From NCBI GenBank assembly GCA_964643065.1, contig CAZXPD010000004.1, positions 5,098-69,097 on the forward strand: a stretch of DNA of 64,000 nucleotides, in the 5' to 3' direction. Shown piece after piece: positions 20,230-54,737 of the stretch (position 1 is the stretch's first letter; the number at the start of each line of letters is the position of its first letter). Source of the stretch: an uncultured Gammaproteobacteria bacterium (GTDB taxonomy: Bacteria; Cyanobacteriota; Vampirovibrionia; Gastranaerophilales; CAZEDP01). A program made the translations under genes and the position numbers. Below the pieces are notes generated by a model that made no database searches, was not told the DNA's origin, and saw nothing but the letters and a program-made list of their open reading frames with translations.

Positions 20230-21510
20230 CTATTCCAACCGCACCGGCCAGTAAAAATCCACAAGATAGCTGGCTGCATCAAACGGATGCCCCATAAACT
20301 TCAACTGCCTGTCCTGTTTTATCTGATAATGCGAAGGCAACGCCAGCCTTGAAGTGCCTTCCTGATATTTAAGGTTTTGCAGATTATATATGAGATTTTT
20401 GCATTTAGGCGAAATATAAACATTAACTTCATTTTTGCTGTTCAATATCTTTGCGTTAAAAGCCGCAATTCTGTTTTTTATTGGCGGATTGAAAGATTTT
20501 ATTTTTATATCCGTATTTTTATAGCCGAGTTGTCCCAGCCTGTTTTTCATAACGGCATAATTTGTAAATTCCGAATTTGACGAACGGTTGTCGCCGGAAG
20601 CATCCCCGTTTATTATAATAGGACCTTTATGCCCTGCATATCTTGAGTGGAATTCATCAACCGCATCTCTTGTTGTTGCATTTTCCATTACGATTTCGTC
20701 GAAATAATATACTTTTTCCTCGGTTTTGTGAGCTAAAATCCAGCACATCGGATCCACGTTAAAATCGCATGTAATATGGAGCGGCAGCTCTTTAATATAG
20801 TTTATATGATTTATATTCTTATCGGAGAACCCTTTTACGGCAAGCCCTTTGGTATAATCGCCAAATTCTCCGAGTACATTAATACGGTAATACTCGCTGT
20901 CATAGGCTTTTTTGAGATTTTCCGCAAAATCTTCCGGGAGATAAATATTTTGAGTTGTAGGAGCTATTATAAGCCGATAATTAGGCTTCGGATTTTCGAC
21001 AAAAGTCCTGTATATCCAGCCCTTTGTGCTTTCGGGGTTAGTATGCCCGAATAACCTGTATTGTGGTATTCCTGACTGTCTTAACCTTCCGAGAAGCATT
21101 TTAAAAGTTGCTTCAGAAACATCAGACATTTCTTCGATTTCTACAAAACCGAGATTTAAAGATTTCAGTCGTGTTTCGTCGTCAAACGACCTGAAAAGTA
21201 TTGATGAACCGTTGCAAAATTCAATCTTGGCTTCACTTTTGATATAGTTATAGTCTACGCCTTCTTTCTTCCCGTCATTTTCGAGATGTTCCAGATACAT
21301 AACAAGAGTGGTATCTCTAACGAGAGGAAAGGTTTGAGCGCCGACAAGACCTCTTATGCCGGGATATTTACGGCACAGCTTTAGTCCCAAAAACGCTCCG
21401 GCAAAAGTTTTTCCCGAGCCGAAACCGCCCTGATAAACGGCAACATCGAGTTTATAGTTATGGGGAATATTTTTTAATTCTTCCTGAGAAGGAAGCAAAT
21501 TAGGTTTCAT
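20230..21510 (-). CDS. terL: Terminase large subunit
   Basis: Walker A QGGFGSGKTF and Walker B-like GFVEIEEMSD. The C-terminal nuclease-type acidic motifs are ITCDFNVDP and IINGDASGD. Confidence 0.85.
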   Translation of the reverse strand: MKPNLLPSQEELKNIPHNYKLDVAVYQGGFGSGKTFAGAFLGLKLCRKYPGIRGLVGAQTFPLVRDTTLVMYLEHLENDGKKEGVDYNYIKSEAKIEFCNGSSILFRSFDDETRLKSLNLGFVEIEEMSDVSEATFKMLLGRLRQSGIPQYRLFGHTNPESTKGWIYRTFVENPKPNYRLIIAPTTQNIYLPEDFAENLKKAYDSEYYRINVLGEFGDYTKGLAVKGFSDKNINHINYIKELPLHITCDFNVDPMCWILAHKTEEKVYYFDEIVMENATTRDAVDEFHSRYAGHKGPIIINGDASGDNRSSNSEFTNYAVMKNRLGQLGYKNTDIKIKSFNPPIKNRIAAFNAKILNSKNEVNVYISPKCKNLIYNLQNLKYQEGTSRLALPSHYQIKQDRQLKFMGHPFDAASYLVDFYWPVRLE

Positions 21511-26178: not shown

Positions 26179-27378
26179 TTAAAGCATACACTTTATAATC
26201 GAAAAAATATCATCCATTATTCCTGTTACTTCTTCATTTTCAGAGATATTATCTGCTATGATATCCGCGAAATCCGATTTTTTAAATTCCCCGAATCCTT
26301 TTTCCTTCCATATTTTTTCAAAAGTCTCGACTTTTGAAGAGTTTTCCCGTAATTCTTCCAGACTGACGGAATTCAGCAGGGAATAATACTTGTTAATTGC
26401 GTTCTTAATTAATTTTTCAGGAATTATATCCTCAAATTCCCCGTCAGGAATGAGAAAAATCCTGTCTTTTTCTTTTAGGATGCTTTCTATTTCTGTTTTA
26501 ACAGGTCGTGCGTCACTGTCCAAAATAATCAAAATTGGCAGATTGATTTTATCGCAGTATTTCCTGTAGATTCTTGCAACCTGATTCTTGCCGCCTGAAG
26601 GAATTATTTTAACTCCCGATTTGTCAAAATCTAGTCCGTTTACTTTTGCAAAGAGAGGCAGGAGCTTCTCTTCAGTAGTTCCTTCTACAAGTATAATAAT
26701 CTTTTCGGGGGAAAGCGATGCTGCTTTTTCTCTGTATATTATGCTTTGGTTGTATATGGTTTCAAAAAGTTCTTTAGATTCGGTTTTACAAGACAAATAT
26801 TTTTCTGATTTCAATAAATTATTAAGATAGATAAGACGTTTTAACGCATCGGAATAATTTTTGCCGTTATTATTTTCGGCAAAATCAAGAAAACGTATTA
26901 TCTTCAGCGGATAATTAAGCCTGACATTAAAATAAAGCTGTTCAAATTCATCAAAATCTGATGATACTTCTTTATCAAAATTATATCCGTTAACTTCAAG
27001 TACTGATTTTATTGATTCAATCGAATTTGAGCAATTATTTTCCAATGGATTTGTACTATTAATAATATTTTCACTTTTTGTAATATCACTTAGCATTTCT
27101 TTAGCGCAAAATACTTTTGTTTCTTCAAAAACCAAGTATTTATTTATAAGATAATCAGCTTCGTTTTGTTTTGCAATTTTATCGAGAGACTCGTTCCAAA
27201 TTTTTGCCGCCAAAAAATTAACCGAGCCGAGAGAGTATTTATAATAATTTTTAAGACTAATTTTTGGAGTTATGCTGAATTTTATGAGAATTTCGCGAAA
27301 AAATCTGTCATAATTTTGATTAGGATATTTAAATCTGATTAATCTCTCAAAAGATGTAAGCAGTTCTTCAAAAGACAT
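26179..27378 (-). CDS. OLD-family Toprim-domain protein lacking the usual ATPase domain
   Basis: C-terminal IILVEGTTEEKLLP...IIPSGGKNQV...LPILIILDSDA...DGEFEDII matches the Toprim (E, DxD) layout of OLD/DUF4435 nucleases. The N-terminal ~220 aa show no Walker motifs. Confidence 0.65.
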   Translation of the reverse strand: MSFEELLTSFERLIRFKYPNQNYDRFFREILIKFSITPKISLKNYYKYSLGSVNFLAAKIWNESLDKIAKQNEADYLINKYLVFEETKVFCAKEMLSDITKSENIINSTNPLENNCSNSIESIKSVLEVNGYNFDKEVSSDFDEFEQLYFNVRLNYPLKIIRFLDFAENNNGKNYSDALKRLIYLNNLLKSEKYLSCKTESKELFETIYNQSIIYREKAASLSPEKIIILVEGTTEEKLLPLFAKVNGLDFDKSGVKIIPSGGKNQVARIYRKYCDKINLPILIILDSDARPVKTEIESILKEKDRIFLIPDGEFEDIIPEKLIKNAINKYYSLLNSVSLEELRENSSKVETFEKIWKEKGFGEFKKSDFADIIADNISENEEVTGIMDDIFSIIKCML

Positions 27379-27560: not shown

Positions 27561-29090
27561 ATGCCAAATAATATTTCCAGCATACAATTCAGCAAAGTCA
27601 ATTACGAAGGCACTATCAAGCCTTCTAAAAACGATTCCGGAAATAATCAAAATCAGAATACCCAAACAACAAATAAAGAAACAAATTTACATTTTGGCAA
27701 TATTTTACCTGAAAGTTTAGTTACGAAAACCTCTGATATGAAGATGTATTATCAGATATATTTGTCATTAGACGGTAAAGACAGAAAAAACCTTGAAAAA
27801 ATAAAAAGCGAGGGCAAATTAAACTCAAGACTGTCCAATGACGGTTCTTCGACACTTGAAAACCTTTATAAAATCTATAAAGAACCTCGTGCAGACGGGC
27901 TTGAGAATAAAAAAATATTAAGTGAAGTTCTGCAGAATCTGGCGAATCCCTATGTCATACACCAAAAATTCGGTAAAGTTCCCGATTTTATGGTGGGAAA
28001 ACTTGTGTTTAACGAAAAAATGAACAGCCTTACAAAAGGTTTATGGCTTGATCCTTCTGTCGCCCCTTATTACAAACAAGCAAAATACACAGGTCCTATT
28101 AGTGCCCTGAAACCGGAAGATTTGAATGTGGAAACAAGCGCAACTTGTGTTGCAACAAGTATAGAATTTAACTTGGCAATGAGAAAGCCTGCGGAATATG
28201 TCAGATATGCGGCAGGCTTAACGAGTCCCAAAATGGAAGTCAAATCCAAAATAAAATTGAGCGATATTTCACCGAATATTATGGATGCATTGTATATTCT
28301 GAATTATTTCCAAACCGAATACAGACCTGTTGACTGGGAGACAGTTGAAGTTACCGTTAAGCCTGACAGCAATGCATTAACAAGAGCTCAAATACAAAGT
28401 AAACACAGACAAACGGATTATACAAAAAGCAGGTTTGACGATTTAGGAGAAACGCCGCCCGAAAATTATAAAATACCCCCTTCTCGTTCATCAGTGGATT
28501 CTCTTATGCAGTCAGCATTTATGCAGTTGGGAAGCCAGAACACGTACAACTCTCTTAATGATATGAGAGCAGGAGAAAACTGTTCCGATCCTAAAGGGCT
28601 TATCGAGTTTGAAAAAACTTATGTCGAAACCATTGTTGAGGATGATGAAGGCGGAATAACTTCAATAACTTATCAAAATGTAGATGACAATAAAAAGCTC
28701 CAGTCTTATTTCTTTGATTATGAGACTACAAAAAAGCATTTGCTTGATACATTAGCTCTCGGCAGAAATGTCATAGTAGGTGTTACTTATGTTGATAACA
28801 ATAAAAATATTCTCGGCGGACACGAAATGACTGTCATCGGAAGCCGAACGGATGCTAACGGAGAACTTTATTTTATTACTAACGATACAGACGATGATTT
28901 TGTAGGTACATCAGAATACAGAGCAAAAGATTTTATCCCCACAATACACCATGCAGGCATCCCGAATAAAGTTCTTAACCAGCCGCCTGAGCCGGAAGCG
29001 GGTTATGTTCTGCTGAATGAATTGGCAGAGCTGAAAAAACAAAACCAGCTTGAAGCTCAAAAGAAACTCCAAGCCGGTAAATCTGTTTAA
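27561..29090 (+). CDS. Large hypothetical protein with a papain-like cysteine-peptidase-type C-terminal half
   Basis: Candidate nucleophile ETSATCVATSIEF and distal GGHEMTVIGSRTDANGELYFITNDTDDD (His, then Asn/Asp). Confidence 0.4.
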   Translation: MPNNISSIQFSKVNYEGTIKPSKNDSGNNQNQNTQTTNKETNLHFGNILPESLVTKTSDMKMYYQIYLSLDGKDRKNLEKIKSEGKLNSRLSNDGSSTLENLYKIYKEPRADGLENKKILSEVLQNLANPYVIHQKFGKVPDFMVGKLVFNEKMNSLTKGLWLDPSVAPYYKQAKYTGPISALKPEDLNVETSATCVATSIEFNLAMRKPAEYVRYAAGLTSPKMEVKSKIKLSDISPNIMDALYILNYFQTEYRPVDWETVEVTVKPDSNALTRAQIQSKHRQTDYTKSRFDDLGETPPENYKIPPSRSSVDSLMQSAFMQLGSQNTYNSLNDMRAGENCSDPKGLIEFEKTYVETIVEDDEGGITSITYQNVDDNKKLQSYFFDYETTKKHLLDTLALGRNVIVGVTYVDNNKNILGGHEMTVIGSRTDANGELYFITNDTDDDFVGTSEYRAKDFIPTIHHAGIPNKVLNQPPEPEAGYVLLNELAELKKQNQLEAQKKLQAGKSV

Positions 29091-29095
29091 CTATT

Positions 29096-30937
29096 TTAGT
29101 TTTGAGACTTTCCTACTGCTTTGTTTTCCAATTCTTTTGCTTTCGCAAAGTTTTCATTGGCTAAATCAGTGAGTCCTTTTTTAGTATAAAGATTCCCGAG
29201 ATTTTTATATGCTTCTACGTAGTCAGGCTTGAACTCAATAGCTTTCTGATAGTTGGAAACGGCTAAATCAGTCATATCCTTTTTCTCAAAGAGATTAGCC
29301 AGTTTAAAGTATGCATATGCATCTTTCGGTTCAATTTCTATATTTTTCTGATAATTTTGTACTGCCAAATCCAACAATCCCTGCTCTGTATAAACATCTC
29401 CCAGAGCGTGATAAGCGGCGGCATTGTTCGGGTAGAGTTTTATTGCTTTTTGAAAACTTTCTGCAGCCTTATCATAGAGTTTTTGTTTTAAGTAGCACTG
29501 TCCAAGTGATGTATACGCCAGGTCATAGTCGGGTTCAATTTCTATTACCTTTTGGTAATACTGCGCAGCAATGTCGTATTGTTTTTTATAGTAATAATAA
29601 ACAATACCCAAATTATAATAGGCATTACTATAATCAGGTTTGACTTCAGCAGCTTTCTTGTAATTTTCGATTGCGAGGTCATACTCTTTATTGTTTTCGT
29701 AAGCCAAGCCCAAATAGTTATATGCTTTTTCGAAATTCGGATAAATTGCGATAGATTTTTTATAATTTTCAATTGCCTTAGCATATTGTTTTTTCTCGTC
29801 ATAAATCAATCCGAGATTATAATATGCTTTATAATAGTTTGGATTAACGTTTATAGCTTTTTCATAATATGGGATTGCTTCGTCAAGCATGCTTTTATGA
29901 TAATAAGCCAGCCCAAGATTGTTATAAGCATCTGCGTCATTTGGATTAAGAGCAGTTGCCTTTTTATTATATTCGATAGCCTTGTCGTATTGTCCTTTTT
30001 TGTCATAGATTCTTCCGAGATTGTAGTATGCCATAGCATAATTCGGGTTGAGACTTATGGCTTTCTCATAATTAGGAATTGCCAGGTCATTTTGTCCTTG
30101 TGTAACATAAACATTTGCAAGATTGTTATAAGCATCGGTAAAAGCCGTGTCGAGATCTATTGCTTTCAGATAATTTGAAATTGCCGGTTCATATTGACTT
30201 TTTTTGTCATAAATAATCCCCAGATTATAATAACCTCTTGCATAGTTTGGATCGAGGCTGACAGCTTTTTCGTAATTTGCAAGTGCAAGGTCATTTTGTC
30301 CCGTTGCTTCATATGCATTTCCCAGATTATTATATGCATCGGTATAATTAGGGTTTGTAGCTATTGCATTTTTGTAGGTCTGGATGGACAGGTCATATTT
30401 GCCCTGTTTGTCGTAAATACTGCCTAAATTATAATAAGCTCTTGAATAGTTCGGATTTATGCTTAAGGCTTTTTTATAGCTTTCAACAGCTTCATTGTAG
30501 AGTCCTTTGTCGTCGTATAAAATTCCCAGGTTATTATGCGCATCAGACATATTGGGATTTACCGCAATAGCTTTTTTATAGTTTGAAATAGCCAAATCAT
30601 TTTGCTGAGTTTTCGAATATACAAGCGCAAGATTATAGTAAGCATCACCATAATTAGGATTAATGCTCAGCGCTTTTTTGAAGTTTGCTATGGCTAAATC
30701 ATATTGGTTTTTTTGATAGTATGCCAACCCCAGATCGTAATAGGCAAGATGCACTTCATAATTAGAAGGATCTGCTTTTATGGCTTTTTGGAAATTTGCA
30801 ATGGCAAGATCGTATTGACCGCTGTCATAGTAGTTGATACCGATATCAAAATAATCTCCAAATGCAGCGCTTTGAGAATAAACCGGCAAACATGCCGCAA
30901 CAAACAGTGTTAAAAAGAAAAGTTTAAGTCTGTTCAT
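29096..30937 (-). CDS. Secreted TPR-repeat protein (about 17 repeats)
   Basis: ATG 30937 has GGGAG upstream and yields the signal peptide MNRLKLFFLTLFVAACLPVYS. The body is a continuous run of AYYNLG..Y...G.YD.AI..Y.KA(I/L)..(N/D)PN units. Confidence 0.9.
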   Translation of the reverse strand: MNRLKLFFLTLFVAACLPVYSQSAAFGDYFDIGINYYDSGQYDLAIANFQKAIKADPSNYEVHLAYYDLGLAYYQKNQYDLAIANFKKALSINPNYGDAYYNLALVYSKTQQNDLAISNYKKAIAVNPNMSDAHNNLGILYDDKGLYNEAVESYKKALSINPNYSRAYYNLGSIYDKQGKYDLSIQTYKNAIATNPNYTDAYNNLGNAYEATGQNDLALANYEKAVSLDPNYARGYYNLGIIYDKKSQYEPAISNYLKAIDLDTAFTDAYNNLANVYVTQGQNDLAIPNYEKAISLNPNYAMAYYNLGRIYDKKGQYDKAIEYNKKATALNPNDADAYNNLGLAYYHKSMLDEAIPYYEKAINVNPNYYKAYYNLGLIYDEKKQYAKAIENYKKSIAIYPNFEKAYNYLGLAYENNKEYDLAIENYKKAAEVKPDYSNAYYNLGIVYYYYKKQYDIAAQYYQKVIEIEPDYDLAYTSLGQCYLKQKLYDKAAESFQKAIKLYPNNAAAYHALGDVYTEQGLLDLAVQNYQKNIEIEPKDAYAYFKLANLFEKKDMTDLAVSNYQKAIEFKPDYVEAYKNLGNLYTKKGLTDLANENFAKAKELENKAVGKSQN

Positions 30938-31196
30938 ATTCAGCTCCCTATTTTGGTAAACTCCAATTAAGTAAAACAATTTGACTATAAAAACCCGCTA
31001 ATGTAAATATGAGTAAATAACTGCTTTATGATTGACTTTTGCTTTAAATAAGCATCACTGAATCTGATTTTGATAAATTACCCAAATTTATATTATCGAG
31101 GTTTTTTCCGTGTGTTTTTGGAGCGGGGAATTTGTAAAGTGTCATACAGAAACTTTTAGGAATTCCGTTAAGTTCATATGAAATATCGATACGTGA

Positions 31197-31249
31197 TGCG
31201 AAAATGAGTGCTTGAAAATAATCTTGTCCACATGGGTTGAAACCCACCC
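31197..31249. repeat. 53-bp direct repeat, copy 1
   Basis: tgcgaaaatgagtgcttgaaaataatcttgtccacatgggttgaaacccaccc is identical to 31482..31534. It contains the mini-hairpin gggt-tgaa-accc. Confidence 0.85.
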
Positions 31250-31481
31250 AGACTATCCGCGGTGTTTTTTGTGCGTTTTTGAGGCAAATAATTGGGTATA
31301 ATTAGATATTTGAAGCAAAGTTTTCATTGCGGGTTGAAACCTTAACCCGAGTGTGCATTCCTGAAGCATAAGGCTGTGCTAACAAAGATTATCGGGGATG
31401 TTCAAAATCTATCCGGTTATCGACACCTGCATAGGCTAAACTGTTTGTTAGGAAAAGCCCTGTGGGTATTATCGTGGGCGG

Positions 31482-31534
31482 TGCGAAAATGAGTGCTTGA
31501 AAATAATCTTGTCCACATGGGTTGAAACCCACCC
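31482..31534. repeat. 53-bp direct repeat, copy 2
   Basis: Identical to 31197..31249. It lies about 140 nt upstream of the ATPase gene start. Confidence 0.85.
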
Positions 31535-31672
31535 GCTTGTTGGAGAGATGGAAATATAGTTTTTTGATGATTTAAGTATAGTATAATTTTAATTATGCTT
31601 TTATTATCGAAATATATAATGAATATAAAAATGTTTTTTTAGTGATGACTGTAATATTAGGTGAATAATTAT

Positions 31673-33811
31673 ATGTTAACTGAAGATTTATTGAAAAATG
31701 ACGATAAAGATAATTTTAATGAATTGGCTCAATCCTTGAAATTATGTAGAAGAGCGGATTTAACAGATTTTTATAATGACGAGAATATAATTGAGGAACT
31801 ATATGTTGATCCTTATGAAAATAATTTTGTATTAAATTCTATGCTCCTTCCAAATACTACATTGTTAATAGGCAGGAAAGGTACAGGAAAATCAACAATT
31901 ATATCTCGAGTTCAACACGAAATAAGAAAAAGACCCAATTCATTGTCGTTATATTTAGATGTAAAAACCATATATGAACAATGTTTGTTAACAAATCAAG
32001 ATTCCGAAACTTATCAAGGTATTTTATCGCTCGAGAACATAAAAAAATATTTACTCTATAAAGCATTTATTAAAGAAATCTTACTACAAGTTAAGAACGA
32101 GATTAAAATAAAAACGAAAGCAAAAAATTCTCTTTGGGCAAAAATTATAACTTTTTTTAAAAATGAAAAAAAATTTATTGATGAAGTAGATAACCTTATA
32201 AATTACTCAACAGAGAATGAATATCAAGATATTACATTACTAAGAAATGTAACTATTAAACATAGGTCGTCAGTCTCGGAAACATCAACTTTTCGTGATA
32301 ATGGAGAATTATCCTCAAAAGCAACAGTTAATAATTTGGGTGTTTCTGCAAAATTAGCAAGTAATTCCGAAAGTGCTGAAGCAAACAGCGATTCACTAGA
32401 AGAGCAATTTAGTAAGGTATTGTCAATTTACTACAGTCCCATTGAATTTGTAAATAAAATTAAAAATCTTTTATCTGAATTTGGGATTAGACAAATTATT
32501 ATCTGTTTAGATGATTTTTCGGAAATAGATGAAGGAGCAATCAAAGTATTTGTTGATACTTTGATTGCTCCTCTCAATAATTGGACAGACGAATTTATTA
32601 AATTTAAAATTTGTGCATATCCAGATCGCTACTATTTAGGTAGCATCGATCCTACCAAAATTGATATATTGAATTTAGATTTTTATAATCTATATTCTCA
32701 AAGAACTATAAAAGATATACAAAACGAAGCATTATCTTATACTAAGAGATTATTAGACAAAAGGCTTTCATATTTTTGTAAAAAAAGTTTTGATACTTTT
32801 TTTGATACCACCAAAGATGGAAAAGCTGTATTTTATGAAACTATATTTTATATTACTGCTAATGTTCCTCGTAATATTGGGCGAATTTTATGGTATGCTT
32901 CGCAATCCGCTATTTCAAGAGGGAAAAAAATAACATTAACTGACTTAAGATTGGCATCTGAAAAATATTATAAAGATAGTATTGAGGTGTATTTTAATAA
33001 AGACAGCCATATATTGCAAACCTATAATGATCAATTATCTAGACATCATTTAAAATTAATTTTGAATGCATTAGTATCTCAAGCTAAAATAAATAAAAAA
33101 GAAATAGGTTTATCAGTTGCATCAATATTTAAAGATTATGCAGTAAATACAGCTCCGACAAGCTTCTTTTATATTTTATCTATTAGGGAATATGAAAAAT
33201 TATTATCTTCATTAGAATTGAACTTCTTTATTACCAAGTATAATGAACAAAAAAACAAAGATGGAAGGAGTATCAGTTTATATTGGCTAAATTATGGTTT
33301 ATGTATGAAAGAAGATATTATATTTGGAAAAGGTAATGACCGAAAATATTTAATTGAGAGAAAATTTAATTACACAGAGTTGCTTAAAGATTATATCGAA
33401 AGGGTACAAGTTATAAAATGCAAGCAATGTGAAGCTGAGTTCCAAATTGAAGAATTAGAAAGCCTAAAAAAATATGATATGCAATGCTATATTTGTAAAA
33501 AAGGAATTTGTGGCATAGAGCATTTAAACGTATCCTTACCTAAAGAAACTATTGATAACACAATAAAGTTGCCTGAAATAGACTTTGACATCCTGAATTC
33601 CATTAGAATAAATAATTTTCCCATGTTCGCTAGTCAGCTAGCTGGTGAATTAGATTGTTCTTATCAAAAAGTGGGAAAAAGAGCACAAATATTATCTGCT
33701 AAAGGCTATATTGAAAAAAAAGAAGAAACTCACAATAAAAAACATGGACAAAGGAGCTATTATTATATAACTCAAAAAGCTATTGATGATTTTTTTAATA
33801 AGTCAATGTGA
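31673..33811 (+). CDS. P-loop NTPase with C-terminal zinc ribbon and winged-helix domain
   Basis: Walker A LIGRKGTGKST and Walker B IIICLDDFSEID. The ribbon is CKQCEAEF...CYICKKGIC, followed by a MarR-like tail QKVGKRAQILSAKGYIEKKE. I prefer ATG 31673 (AGGTGA 8 nt upstream) to GTG 31661. Confidence 0.65.
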   Translation: MLTEDLLKNDDKDNFNELAQSLKLCRRADLTDFYNDENIIEELYVDPYENNFVLNSMLLPNTTLLIGRKGTGKSTIISRVQHEIRKRPNSLSLYLDVKTIYEQCLLTNQDSETYQGILSLENIKKYLLYKAFIKEILLQVKNEIKIKTKAKNSLWAKIITFFKNEKKFIDEVDNLINYSTENEYQDITLLRNVTIKHRSSVSETSTFRDNGELSSKATVNNLGVSAKLASNSESAEANSDSLEEQFSKVLSIYYSPIEFVNKIKNLLSEFGIRQIIICLDDFSEIDEGAIKVFVDTLIAPLNNWTDEFIKFKICAYPDRYYLGSIDPTKIDILNLDFYNLYSQRTIKDIQNEALSYTKRLLDKRLSYFCKKSFDTFFDTTKDGKAVFYETIFYITANVPRNIGRILWYASQSAISRGKKITLTDLRLASEKYYKDSIEVYFNKDSHILQTYNDQLSRHHLKLILNALVSQAKINKKEIGLSVASIFKDYAVNTAPTSFFYILSIREYEKLLSSLELNFFITKYNEQKNKDGRSISLYWLNYGLCMKEDIIFGKGNDRKYLIERKFNYTELLKDYIERVQVIKCKQCEAEFQIEELESLKKYDMQCYICKKGICGIEHLNVSLPKETIDNTIKLPEIDFDILNSIRINNFPMFASQLAGELDCSYQKVGKRAQILSAKGYIEKKEETHNKKHGQRSYYYITQKAIDDFFNKSM

Positions 33812-33919: not shown

Positions 33920-34714
33920 ATGACCGACAGCACAAAAATATTAAACACCGCGAAAGAAGCCGCTTTGGAGGCGGGCAAAATTCATATGCAGTTTTTTGGC
34001 AAAAAACTCGAAATATCCCATAAATTCAATGAATACGACCTAGTCACGAACGTTGACAAACTTTCGGAAGAAAAAATCGTTTCTGTTATAAAAAAGAGCT
34101 TCCCTGACCACGACATTTTGGGAGAGGAAGGCACGCAAGCCGCCACGCACGCGTCGGATTTCACCTGGGTAATTGACCCGATAGACGGAACGACCAACTA
34201 TGCGCATGCCTTTCCGCAGTTTTCGGCTTCGATAGGGATTTTATACAAAGGCGAATTGTTCATGGGCGTTGTCTATGATGCTTTTAAAAAAGAAATGTTC
34301 AGCGCAGTCAAAAGTCAAGGGGCGTTTTTGAACGACAGCCCGATTGCAGTCAGCACGGTAGATACAATCGAGAAATCGCTCCTCTCAACAGGCTTCCCTT
34401 ATGACAGGGAAGAAGTTATGAAAGAGAACCTCAAATACTTTGAAAGTTTTGTTTATAAAGCTCAGGCTCTCAGGCGTCAGGGCTCTGCCAGTCTGGATTT
34501 GTGCTATACGGCATGCGGAAGGCTGGACGGCTTCTGGGAATTAAATCTCGCGCCTTGGGATACAGCCGCAGGGGCGTTGATAGTTTTGGAGGCAGGCGGC
34601 AAAGTTACAAATATGCACAGTGATGCGTTTGATATTTACGAAAAAAGCATAATAGCTTCGAACGGTTTGATTCATTCCCAAATGAAGGATATTATAAACT
34701 ACGCCAAAGTTTAA
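33920..34714 (+). CDS. suhB: Inositol monophosphatase family protein
   Basis: Contains the motifs LGEEG and WVIDPIDGTTNY, and WDTAAG near the C-terminus. Confidence 0.9.
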   Translation: MTDSTKILNTAKEAALEAGKIHMQFFGKKLEISHKFNEYDLVTNVDKLSEEKIVSVIKKSFPDHDILGEEGTQAATHASDFTWVIDPIDGTTNYAHAFPQFSASIGILYKGELFMGVVYDAFKKEMFSAVKSQGAFLNDSPIAVSTVDTIEKSLLSTGFPYDREEVMKENLKYFESFVYKAQALRRQGSASLDLCYTACGRLDGFWELNLAPWDTAAGALIVLEAGGKVTNMHSDAFDIYEKSIIASNGLIHSQMKDIINYAKV

Positions 34715-53645: not shown

Positions 53646-54737
53646 ATGAAAACCGTTTCGCAAAAACTTAATTTAAACACAATAATCCACGGCGATTGCA
53701 TAGAAGAAATGCAAAAGCTCCCCGAAGGCTTTGCCAAGGTTATTTTTGCTGACCCTCCTTATAATATGCAGTTAAACGGAGAGCTTTACCGCCCGAATCA
53801 GACACGAGTCGACGGAGTTGACGATGATTGGGACAAATTCGGTTCTTTCAGTGATTATGACGATTTTACAAGACAATGGCTTGCACAGTGCAAGAGATTA
53901 TTAAGCGATGACGGAACTATCTGGGTTATCGGCTCTTATCATAACATTTTCCGCGTAGGGAAAATTATGCAGGACTTAGGTTTTTGGATATTAAACGATA
54001 TTATTTGGGTTAAAACAAACCCCATGCCGAACTTTAACGGCGTGAGATTTACAAACGCTCACGAGACTTTGATATGGGCTAAAAAATCTGAGAAACAGAA
54101 GAAATATACATTTAATTATCAAACAATGAAAAACCTCAATGACGAAAAACAAATGCGAAGCGACTGGGAAATTCCCATCTGTTCCGGTAATGAACGATGC
54201 AGAGAAAACGGAAGCAAAGCGCATTCAACTCAAAAGCCGGAAGGGCTTCTCAGACGGGTAATATTATCTTCTTCAAATCCGGGTGATATTGTTTTTGATC
54301 CGTTCTTTGGTTCCGGTACAACCGGAGCAGTTGCAAAGAAACTCAAACGAAACTGGCTGGGCATTGAAAAAGAGCAAAAATACACAGATATTGCCGCTGA
54401 AAGGATATATTCAGTTTCAGAATGTCAATTATCCGAAGAAGAACTTACAACTCCTACCAGAAGAGAGCTTCCTCGAGTCAGCGTGGCAAAGCTGATAGAA
54501 GTTGGTTTGCTTCAAGAAGGAGAGATATTTTGTTCCGAAGATAAAAAATATTCAGCGGTATTATGTGCTGACAGCTTTTTAAAATCCGACAAATTAAGAG
54601 GCTCAATTCACAAGCTGGGCGCGCAGCTGCAAAACAAACCGTCCTGCAACGGCTGGGATTTTTGGTTTATTAAACAAAACAATGCTCTTGTATCTATCAA
54701 TCTATTGAGAGATAAATATAGAGAAGAATATTTATAG
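53646..54737 (+). CDS. ccrM: CcrM-like beta-class N6-adenine DNA methyltransferase (orphan; GANTC specificity expected by homology)
   Basis: TIIHGDCIEEM, IFADPPYN, IWVIGSYHNIFRVG, LGFWILNDIIW.K.NPMPNF, HETLIWA, QMRSDW.IP.C, KAHSTQKPE.LL.RVIL, DPFFGSGTTGA. This is near-colinear with Caulobacter CcrM as I remember it. No restriction partner was seen. Confidence 0.85.
   Translation: MKTVSQKLNLNTIIHGDCIEEMQKLPEGFAKVIFADPPYNMQLNGELYRPNQTRVDGVDDDWDKFGSFSDYDDFTRQWLAQCKRLLSDDGTIWVIGSYHNIFRVGKIMQDLGFWILNDIIWVKTNPMPNFNGVRFTNAHETLIWAKKSEKQKKYTFNYQTMKNLNDEKQMRSDWEIPICSGNERCRENGSKAHSTQKPEGLLRRVILSSSNPGDIVFDPFFGSGTTGAVAKKLKRNWLGIEKEQKYTDIAAERIYSVSECQLSEEELTTPTRRELPRVSVAKLIEVGLLQEGEIFCSEDKKYSAVLCADSFLKSDKLRGSIHKLGAQLQNKPSCNGWDFWFIKQNNALVSINLLRDKYREEYL

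Follow-up and report, generated by a model that had tools for sequence, protein, structure and literature searches.

Positions 31673 to 33811 of a 64,000-nucleotide (nt) stretch of contig CAZXPD010000004.1 (the window, meaning the whole stretch of DNA analysed here) hold a complete gene for an uncharacterised AAA+ ATPase, which from its predicted structure appears to belong to the ORC/Cdc6 clade, with BrxC and archaeal Orc1/Cdc6 as the closest solved relatives. We propose that this protein (the query) is a stand-alone immune or conflict ATPase; we infer the defence role and hold this reading with about even confidence. It gains support because defence genes adjoin homologs, DNA methyltransferase (MTase) genes are enriched beside the gene, and a sister branch carries a TIR domain. 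A sequence-only reading of this DNA had put the gene forward as a single-gene defence candidate, and the same three observations favour that idea; on the other side, the defence role is deduced indirectly and the protein has no effector domain. The family, which joins an ATPase to a winged helix, a zinc ribbon and a winged helix-turn-helix (wHTH), has no profile in Pfam, NCBIfam, PADLOC or PHROGs. Its general kind is known from BREX, Ssp, DUF499 and comparative-genomic surveys, and our full-text literature search found no paper describing this family.

The open reading frame (ORF) list of the window shows an intact ORF at 31661/31673-33811 on the + strand. The true start codon is the ATG at 31673, because a Shine-Dalgarno sequence lies 8 nt before it, the JGI annotation of the source contig (metagenome 3300022666, Ga0248168_1000313, 96.9 kb) calls the gene from the same ATG, and all homolog alignments also start there. 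The domains were delimited with two alignments, A1 (the query and 31 homologs of 37-51% identity, 32 sequences in all) and A5 (an A1-type set plus more distant TIR-bearing relatives), and with AlphaFold2 models built with the homolog alignment, one of the full-length protein (pLDDT 78, pTM 0.77) and one of residues 1-545 (pLDDT 76, pTM 0.76). The features of the gene are as follows.

31659..31664, + strand: Shine-Dalgarno sequence AGGTGA, 8 nt 5' of ATG 31673 (direct sequence reading)
31673..33811, + strand: complete gene of 712 aa (stop codon included) for a predicted ORC/Cdc6-clade AAA+ ATPase with lid, winged helix, Cys4 zinc ribbon and MarR-type wHTH (ORF list, 811 full-length homologs, alignment A1, AlphaFold2 model)
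31697..31843, + strand: N-terminal helical region, residues 9-57, with conserved R27-A28, Y44 and D46 (model, alignments)
31871..31897, + strand: Walker A motif or P-loop, GRKGTGKST, residues 67-75 (A1 and A5)
31961..32476, + strand: helical insertion after strand 2, residues 97-268, with a disordered hypervariable loop at residues ~205-236 (model secondary structure, pLDDT, conservation)
32489..32524, + strand: Walker B strand and motif, IIICLDDFSEID, residues 273-284 (alignments; strand 274-280 in the model)
32717..33112, + strand: AAA+ lid or C-terminal helical bundle, residues 349-480 (model, alignments)
33164..33289, + strand: first winged helix, residues 498-539, made of a strand, a helix and a beta-hairpin (models; E508, L514, E515 and F519 invariant in A1)
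33407..33523, + strand: Cys4 zinc ribbon, residues 579-617, C583-x2-C586 ... C605-x2-C608, plus C613 (A1; model strands 579-583 and 612-617)
33575..33796, + strand: C-terminal MarR/Lrs14-type wHTH, residues ~635-708 (profiles, Foldseek)

The ATPase core is strongly conserved. Both Walker motifs lie in the first 300 residues, as the sequence-only reading had stated, and both are conserved in A1. In the Walker A motif G67, R68, G70, T71, G72, K73, S74 and T75 are invariant in A1 and A5, and residue 69 is K or R. In the Walker B motif, neither alignment shows any variation at D280, D281 and E284; S283, like N302 and N303 further on, never varies in A1 and keeps a conservation of at least 90% in A5. 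The ASCE core comprises five strands in the model (62-66, 90-96, 274-280, 309-316 and 330-334). Directly after strand 90-96, both models show an all-helical insertion of ~170 residues (97-268) that parts Walker A from Walker B, a feature absent from the earlier reading; its loop at residues ~205-236 is poorly conserved in A1 and disordered by pLDDT. Judged from the models, the insertion would sit at the same place as the ORC/Cdc6 initiator-specific or HEH insert, yet it is much larger. R319, in a YPxR motif that is at least 90% conserved, lies between strands 309-316 and 330-334 and by its position near strand 5 is a plausible candidate arginine finger. P399-R400 (VPRNxG) is invariant in A1 and A5 and begins the helix 399-412, and its position makes R400 a candidate sensor-2 arginine. 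R27-A28 in the N-terminal helical region is invariant in A1 and at least 90% conserved once the TIR relatives join, and this region may provide adenine-side or N-linker contacts of the AAA+ fold.

What had been described as a long helical middle resolves in the model into the AAA+ lid or helical bundle (residues 349-480) and the first winged helix (residues 498-539), which appears to hold the position of the winged-helix domain of Orc1/Cdc6 and BrxC. The four-cysteine ribbon was read correctly: C583, C586, C605 and C608 are invariant in A1, as are C544 and C613, which brings the invariant cysteines to six. C544 is still invariant in A5, and in the ribbon region of that alignment four cysteine columns reach a conservation of at least 90%. 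The conservation of the motifs and cysteines is far above chance. The MarR-like assignment of the C-terminal wHTH also holds, with profile E-values of ~1e-3 and a fold root-mean-square deviation of 2-3 A over ~78 residues against MarR, AdcR and ZitR; D661 in this domain is invariant in A1. The relatives P0120 and P0162 pass the Pfam MarR cut-off, the query is under every Pfam and NCBIfam cut-off, and the NCBIfam profiles Lrs14 and Sta1 give sub-threshold matches in the wHTH of the query. Sequence conservation thus suggests an AAA+ motor that is presumably active and is followed by putative DNA-binding modules, three in number. No nuclease, NADase, protease or other effector-like domain is detectable with Pfam, PADLOC, NCBIfam and PHROGs profiles and the fold search.

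Profile searches do not place the query in a named family. No model in Pfam (2025), NCBIfam (2026), PADLOC-DB v2.0.0 (2023) or PHROGs scores above its cut-off, in agreement with the earlier statement that no named system could be matched. The sub-threshold matches are only to generic P-loop profiles (AAA_22, AAA_16, TIGR02928) and wHTH profiles (Lrs14, Sta1, PadR), and the best PADLOC-DB matches (E 0.007-0.025) cover the P-loop or the wHTH only. The orc1/cdc6 profile TIGR02928 gives 14.7 bits against a cut-off of 181.3. For the Pfam family ORC-CDC6-like (PF24389), the query is not among the matches at E <= 1 and other relatives reach 19.6-26 bits against a cut-off of 27, which the relatives P0218 (34.8 bits) and P0200 (29.3 bits) pass. 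Sequence searches of the PDB with the query detect the wHTH alone.

With the full model, Foldseek returns Orc1/Cdc6 (2qby_B, E 3.6e-4), RdrA, ORC subunits, RuvB, TnsC, MuB and Avs3, together with MarR-family matches for the tail. With the tail removed, the top match is the BREX ATPase BrxC (9zll_B, E 7.3e-5), followed by Orc1/Cdc6 (2qby_A/B, E 2.5-3.4e-4), 1fnn, ORC4/5, TnsC, a second BrxC entry, RdrA and MuB. These matches, beside the sub-threshold AAA_16, AAA_22 and orc1/cdc6 profiles, accord with the earlier suggestion of an ORC/Cdc6- or AAA_16-like ATPase. Matches to ORC/Cdc6-clade members have a probability of ~1.0 and TM-scores of 0.27-0.51, which are low because of the large insert and the flexibility between domains; we therefore assign the query to the ORC/Cdc6 clade and not to a specific family. 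The hallmarks of this clade are a helical insert after strand 2, an arginine finger near strand 5, and a C-terminal helical bundle followed by a wHTH (PMC12839542). The query has the insert after strand 2 and the helical bundle followed by a wHTH.

Two more specific assignments were rejected. Membership of the STAND NTPases (AAA_16, nSTAND, Avs/NLR-like, MalT/LAL) does not fit, with AAA_16 at 22 bits against 32.6 and nSTAND5 at 15.6 against 34 for the query, relatives below the cut-off as well, and no repeat domain in the AlphaFold2 model. The query is also not the BrxC component of BREX: it has no BrxC/DUF499 match in PADLOC or Pfam, it measures 712 aa against ~1200 aa, and no BREX genes are among the 25 most frequent neighbour families of each homolog set.

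BrxC (PglY; 9zll, 9zdx), the ORC/Cdc6-clade ATPase of BREX phage-exclusion systems, is the best structural match across the ATPase-lid-winged helix part. The two proteins share an AAA+ domain with a helical bundle at the N-terminus and, after it, winged-helix domains for DNA binding (PMC12839542). Both BrxC and the query family occur within or beside methylation-based, nuclease-free defence. BrxC, however, is 1200-1300 aa long, has an alpha+beta domain and a coiled coil, and always acts with PglX, PglZ, BrxB and BrxA, whereas the 712-aa query has a zinc ribbon and a MarR-type wHTH instead and a ~170-residue insert between Walker A and Walker B; no BREX partners of the query family are found among the 25 most frequent neighbour families per set. 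Archaeal Orc1/Cdc6 (2qby, 1fnn) has the same domain order of AAA+ base, lid and winged helix (Foldseek E 2.5e-4 to 1.7e-3, probability 1.0) and, like the query, combines an arginine of sensor-2 type in the lid with a helical insert that follows strand 2. What sets the query apart from Orc1/Cdc6 is an added zinc ribbon and second wHTH and the far greater size of its insert; its family is also patchy, horizontally moved and mostly bacterial. Orc1/Cdc6 proteins are replication initiators, and no evidence links the query family to replication origins.

Published surveys describe ORC/Cdc6 ATPases with wHTH domains after them as anchors of conflict systems (PMC12839542, PMC10853773), and some conflict-system copies are fused to TIR (PMC10853773). 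These ATPases (BrxD, DUF499, SspC, HerA/FtsK-coupled, TIR- or NACHT-fused; PF24389) share with the query family both the clade and a mobile, defence-linked behaviour. They differ in forming multi-gene systems with HerA/FtsK, restriction endonuclease (REase), KAP or PglZ, whereas the query family is mostly a lone gene with a zinc ribbon-wHTH tail. RdrA of RADAR (8hra, 8hr7) shows a weak fold similarity (E 1.4e-3 to 1.8e-2) and is likewise a defence-associated ATPase without an effector domain of its own; unlike RdrA, the query has no PADLOC RdrA match, no RdrB deaminase partner, and a different size and different C-terminal domains. The MarR/Lrs14 regulators (AdcR, ZitR, ST1710) share their fold and sequence signature with the last ~80 residues of the query. 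MarR-family chains are 140-150 residues long, of which ~78 align to the wHTH core of the query and the remainder has no counterpart; the wHTH of the query is an appendage of a 712-aa ATPase.

In the sister branch, the complete architecture of the query is retained and a TIR domain follows it at the C-terminus. P0218 aligns to residues 13-701 of the query (E 2e-45) and matches TIR_2 with an E-value of 3.7e-14. P0267, which is 42% identical to P0218 and present in up to 10 contigs, is named a TIR domain-containing protein by NCBI, and the gene for a C5 MTase stops 7 nt before it; no endonuclease gene is seen at this locus.

Methyltransferase genes are concentrated beside the family. A crude motif screen of ORFs, distance-controlled within the same loci, flags MTase motifs in 10/192 ORFs within 1.5 kb, 0/252 at 1.5-4 kb and 1/450 at 4-10 kb. 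In four loci, confirmed by Pfam and PADLOC, the order is MTase, family gene and TdeIII REase, with ORFs that overlap or lie very close; the MTase of this subclade is of the N4/N6 type. A fifth locus, L026, shares the upstream ORF with the MTase motif. Elsewhere, a C5 MTase gene confirmed by Pfam ends 9 nt before the homolog P0022, from a metagenome-assembled genome (MAG), with an Eco47II REase nearby. The MTases of L049 and L052 were confirmed by PDB homology as HhaI-type C5 and CcrM/RsrI-type N6/N4 enzymes. One further flagged MTase gives a weak match only, and that of L025 could not be confirmed and was dropped. An MTase thus lies directly beside the gene in at least nine loci, including a TIR-branch locus, in at least five arrangements and with three MTase classes, and three kinds of type II restriction-modification (RM) system stand beside the family. 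The description of the gene as stand-alone fits here and at most loci, and fails for about one-tenth of family members, which share an operon with a methyltransferase and in some cases also with a restriction endonuclease. This adjacency is more specific than general residence in defence islands and points to a functional tie to DNA modification in part of the family.

Recognised defence genes adjoin the family at individual loci, namely HEC-04, ThsA-like SIR2, retron I-C, type II RM and GajA-type TOPRIM genes. In Vibrio lentus a homolog lies beside HEC-04 (at -1) and a prophage. In B. subtilis a ThsA-like SIR2 protein is at -1, downstream of rlmH, and the same site is reused in Shouchella with recombinase remnants. 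The Arsenophonus homolog lies beside smpB and a retron I-C protein (reverse transcriptase-Toprim), that of Fluviicola near RteC, and that of Carboxylicivirga inside an integrase/ImmA element; the homologs of Acinetobacter and B. altitudinis are flanked by ordinary genes. Pfam counts (25 most frequent families per set) for +/-2 and +/-3 neighbours show scattered RM subunits, integrases, AAA_21, OLD-TOPRIM, Schlafen/AlbA_2 and HipA amid many housekeeping genes. We also called ORFs and clustered the +/-4 neighbours all against all in 78 loci. No conserved partner gene is found in these loci, except for the MTase and TdeIII REase of the four-locus subclade, and a partner gene conserved across the family was rejected on this basis. 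On a possible enrichment of homologs beside defence genes, the observations point both ways: HEC-04, SIR2, retron and RM genes and the local MTase excess (10/192 vs 1/702) are on one side, and many loci with housekeeping genes only are on the other.

Apparent fusions require a separate comment. The P0303 gut-metagenome lineage, a single cluster of 1,632 sequences, shows in-frame junctions of many kinds, to an AlwI endonuclease, to a D12 methylase and to a Mob/Pre relaxase, as well as internal deletions. An AlwI-REase fusion as a designed architecture was rejected, with many different junctions between full-length P0303 and the neighbouring REase and with Mob/Pre and D12-MTase chimeras, the genes concerned lying on an integrative mobilizable element; the junctions mark either a recombination hot spot or recurrent assembly artefacts. 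A Mob/Pre-C-terminal-half chimera is also found in Blautia obeum (L098, 10001-11530), in an integrative mobilizable element beside tuf. An AbiEii fusion was rejected as a singleton with a truncated toxin domain.

The family is rare and widely scattered. A word-indexed search found 811 homologs, nearly all full length at ~700 aa and named only 'hypothetical', 'MarR family' or 'AAA+ ATPase' in their sources, and an exhaustive search gave 419 clusters at 50% identity. Relatives occur in at least 289 of 185,579 species (one genome per species; ~0.16%), across more than 12 bacterial phyla (including Bacteroidota, Bacillota, Pseudomonadota, Cyanobacteriota, Planctomycetota, Acidobacteriota, Actinomycetota, Nitrospirota, Spirochaetota, Fusobacteriota and Campylobacterota) and two archaeal orders (Methanosarcina, Methanobrevibacter). 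The closest named relative, with 51% identity, comes from a Gastranaerophilales MAG, and the family is absent from complete E. coli genomes in a DNA-level search. Only 1 of 72,556 plasmid records has a family member. Complete phage genomes contain a fragment and no full-length homolog, and the 2.9 million viral contigs of IMG/VR contain five full-length copies; a phage origin was rejected on these grounds. The fragment, in the filamentous cholera phage KSF1 (Vibrio phage, NC_006294, L091; 6535-6873), is 40% identical to residues 15-128 of the query (N-terminus and P-loop), is split across ORF XII and ORF XIII, and looks like the decayed remnant of a family member. The family as a whole is horizontally mobile and has no universal partner gene.

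The single plasmid is the 6-kb MOBP mobilizable Enterobacter hormaechei plasmid pRHBSTW-00012_3 (NZ_CP058193, L090 1901-4986), on which the homolog is the main cargo. A role as plasmid replication initiator was rejected because this sole carrier has its own Rep. Together with the score of TIGR02928 (14.7 vs 181), this means that the searches do not place the protein in a known replication or partition family; such a placement is what the sequence-only reading had named as counting against its proposal.

In the genome studied here, the gene was acquired horizontally and is accessory; it lies in a short variable island with a prophage on one side and suhB on the other. The surrounding features are as follows.

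~3400-23500, - strand: prophage or phage-like block (phage-record matches)
26179-27378, - strand: TOPRIM-only protein, 399 aa (PADLOC GajA/Old, E 1.5e-12; Pfam OLD-like_TOPRIM)
27561-29090, + strand: 509-aa protein, flanked by the TOPRIM and TPR genes, without a match in Pfam or PADLOC
29096-30979, - strand: TPR gene (ORF list)
30980..31672, no strand: non-coding spacer of 693 bp with a perfect 53-nt direct repeat, 31197-31249 and 31482-31534 (sequence)
33920-34714, + strand: suhB (ORF list)

The GC content of the gene is 27.3%, and its GC content at third codon positions (GC3) of 19.1% is the lowest of 29 long ORFs of the window (mean 33 +/- 7%). Next to it, suhB has 44.5% GC and 51% GC3 in a window of 34.5% GC. 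The ATPase gene is found in 0/80 metagenomic loci with suhB relatives, including at least 10 in which the suhB-GHL10 gene pair is kept, and so the gene is not a housekeeping gene of this lineage; universal conservation as such a gene is what the earlier reading had said would refute its proposal. Two synteny-keeping loci that were inspected (L105, L106) have an infC-rpmI-rplT operon upstream of suhB; this operon is not within the 64-kb window, and the region upstream of suhB is therefore rearranged here. From the prophage to suhB, the order is the TOPRIM protein, the 509-aa protein, the TPR protein, the 693-bp spacer and the target gene, with the prophage ~8 kb from the gene. Within the prophage, the ORF at 20230-21510 has terminase large subunits from 1,250 phage records among its matches, and that at 7510-8352 matches major head proteins, the best being that of Microcystis phage MaAM05 (46% identity). 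The 399-aa protein, three genes from the target and beside the prophage, matches only the TOPRIM nuclease part of GajA/Old without the ATPase domain and may be a TOPRIM-only defence nuclease or a remnant. At a distance of 20 kb from the target, the ORF at 53646-54737 (+) contains the motif DPPY, and its N-terminus is like that of typical N6/N4 DNA methyltransferases.

The placement of the gene between a TPR gene and suhB, behind a repeat-containing non-coding region, agrees with the coordinates. The two copies of the 53-nt repeat are 285 nt apart and are the only two in the 64-kb window; an att-like scar, a local duplication and a regulatory element are possibilities. The spacer probably holds the promoter. 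It matches no Rfam family and contains neither a tRNA nor a tmRNA, and RNA folding is not significant for either of its strands. The first three homolog loci inspected have upstream gaps of 500-740 bp, whereas the median over 78 loci is 174 nt. A conserved upstream non-coding RNA or small ORF as a family feature was rejected on this median and on the lack of Rfam, tRNA and fold matches, and the repeat-bearing region that the earlier reading had noted is not a family feature; a link between this spacer and the function of the gene is not supported.

In the mechanism that we propose, the tail (winged helix, Cys4 zinc ribbon and MarR-type wHTH), probably together with the enlarged helical insert, would recognise foreign or unmodified DNA, and ATP binding would drive self-assembly on the recognised DNA, by analogy with BrxC, Orc1/Cdc6, TnsC and MuB. 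The self-association and DNA binding of BrxC are regulated by ATP (PMC13326643). In the TIR sister branch, NAD+ destruction would be triggered by this assembly. The query belongs to the effector-less branch, in which the assembly itself would stop the invader from being replicated or transcribed and so exclude it in a BREX-like way with no nuclease involved; alternatively, the DNA would be handed to a partner, as in the copies within RM operons. Self-marking by methylation is plausible where an MTase adjoins, and lone copies like the query would need another cue. DNA binding, ATP-driven oligomerisation, an immune phenotype and the mode of self/non-self discrimination are what we infer for the family.

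Several observations weigh against a defence role. Neither the query nor most of the family has a nuclease, NADase or other effector domain, and it is therefore not evident how the protein alone would kill or restrict. Many homolog loci show housekeeping genes only, as do the neighbours of the query, TPR and suhB, and the query gene has no methyltransferase beside it. The Foldseek E-values are modest and the TM-scores low. The REase and AbiEii fusions are probably products of rearrangement or assembly and provide hints of adjacency only, not evidence. On the Enterobacter plasmid, the start of the homolog overlaps the stop of rep by 4 nt. This arrangement, which points to coupled translation of the two genes, fits a replication-linked role equally well.

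This last point leads to a rival explanation, in which the protein is a mobile-element maintenance factor, an Orc1/Cdc6-, TnsC- or MuB-like ATPase aiding replication, partition or target choice, and the chromosomal copies are cargo or remnants. The fold class is that of initiators and transposition ATPases, as the Orc1/Cdc6, TnsC and MuB matches show; the overlap with rep would suit such a factor, and so would the truncated Blautia copy, which lies in its integrative mobilizable element beside an AAA_25 replication protein and Mob/Pre, as well as the integrase, RteC and TraG neighbours of homologs and the prophage near the query. We regard this explanation as unlikely, however, given the single record among 72,556 plasmids, the absence of full-length copies from complete phage genomes and their scarcity in viral contigs (five in 2.9 million). 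The carrying plasmid encodes a separate Rep, transposases and recombinases are not conserved partners, many copies are lone genes among housekeeping genes, and the orc1/cdc6 profile stays far below its cut-off; a TIR-fused branch and tight methyltransferase linkage would both be unexpected. A housekeeping gene of the lineage, acting in replication initiation, chromosome partition or similar, would be compatible with the initiator-like fold only. It is effectively refuted by distribution, synteny and composition: the gene is absent from 80/80 suhB-relative loci, including at least 10 with suhB-GHL10 synteny, occurs in ~0.16% of species, has a foreign composition, and has its closest relatives in other phyla.

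The remaining alternatives concern regulation and restriction. An ATP-dependent, ligand-responsive transcription regulator, either an NTPase of the MalT/LAL kind that ends in an HTH or an unusually large controller of adjacent RM genes, would explain why AAA_16-type P-loop matches are combined with a C-terminal MarR-type wHTH, which is the overall logic of STAND/LAL regulators, why sources annotate homologs as 'MarR family transcriptional regulator', and why the gene occupies the position of a controller protein in operons of the MTase-gene-REase type. We consider this quite unlikely, since there is no conserved neighbour or regulon across the 78 loci, the gene is patchy, horizontally acquired and not lineage-stable, the AAA_16 and STAND scores are all below cut-off, no sensor-repeat or ligand-binding domain is present, and the TIR fusion is an effector feature. 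The tight co-directional linkage to MTases of three classes and to TdeIII and Eco47II endonucleases, and the AlwI REase and D12 MTase genes that evidently adjoin the abundant gut lineage, could instead indicate an RM accessory subunit, an ATP-driven DNA scanner or loader acting only with an MTase and an endonuclease, whose lone copies would be orphaned and possibly non-functional remnants. That explanation is improbable in our view: ~85-90% of loci, the query included, have no methyltransferase or endonuclease nearby, and lone copies retain every catalytic and zinc-binding residue and are therefore under selection. The TdeIII-, Eco47II- and AlwI-type enzymes are named type II restriction endonucleases in Pfam. 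To our knowledge, type II restriction enzymes need no ATPase.

Within the reading of the query as an immune or conflict ATPase, a more specific and rather doubtful possibility is a 'mini-BrxC', that is, a new family of single-protein, effector-less immune ATPases that would exclude phages or plasmids through origin-recognition-like, ATP-driven assembly on the incoming DNA, in which an MTase marks self in some lineages and a TIR domain has been added in others. If true, it would be a minimal, tractable model of BREX-type nuclease-free exclusion. ORC/Cdc6-like ATPases anchor BREX and several other large multi-component defence systems, and this family packs such a motor and a putative DNA-reading tail into one 700-aa protein. 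Its natural variants (alone, paired with an MTase, in a three-gene RM operon, and fused to TIR) would, if the protein is protective, form a stepwise, genetically simple series in which to dissect DNA sensing, self/non-self marking and effector coupling, and the defence catalogues would gain a so far unannotated family with some 800 known sequences (clusters at 90% identity). If it is not protective, the family would still be a widespread accessory putative DNA-binding ATPase.

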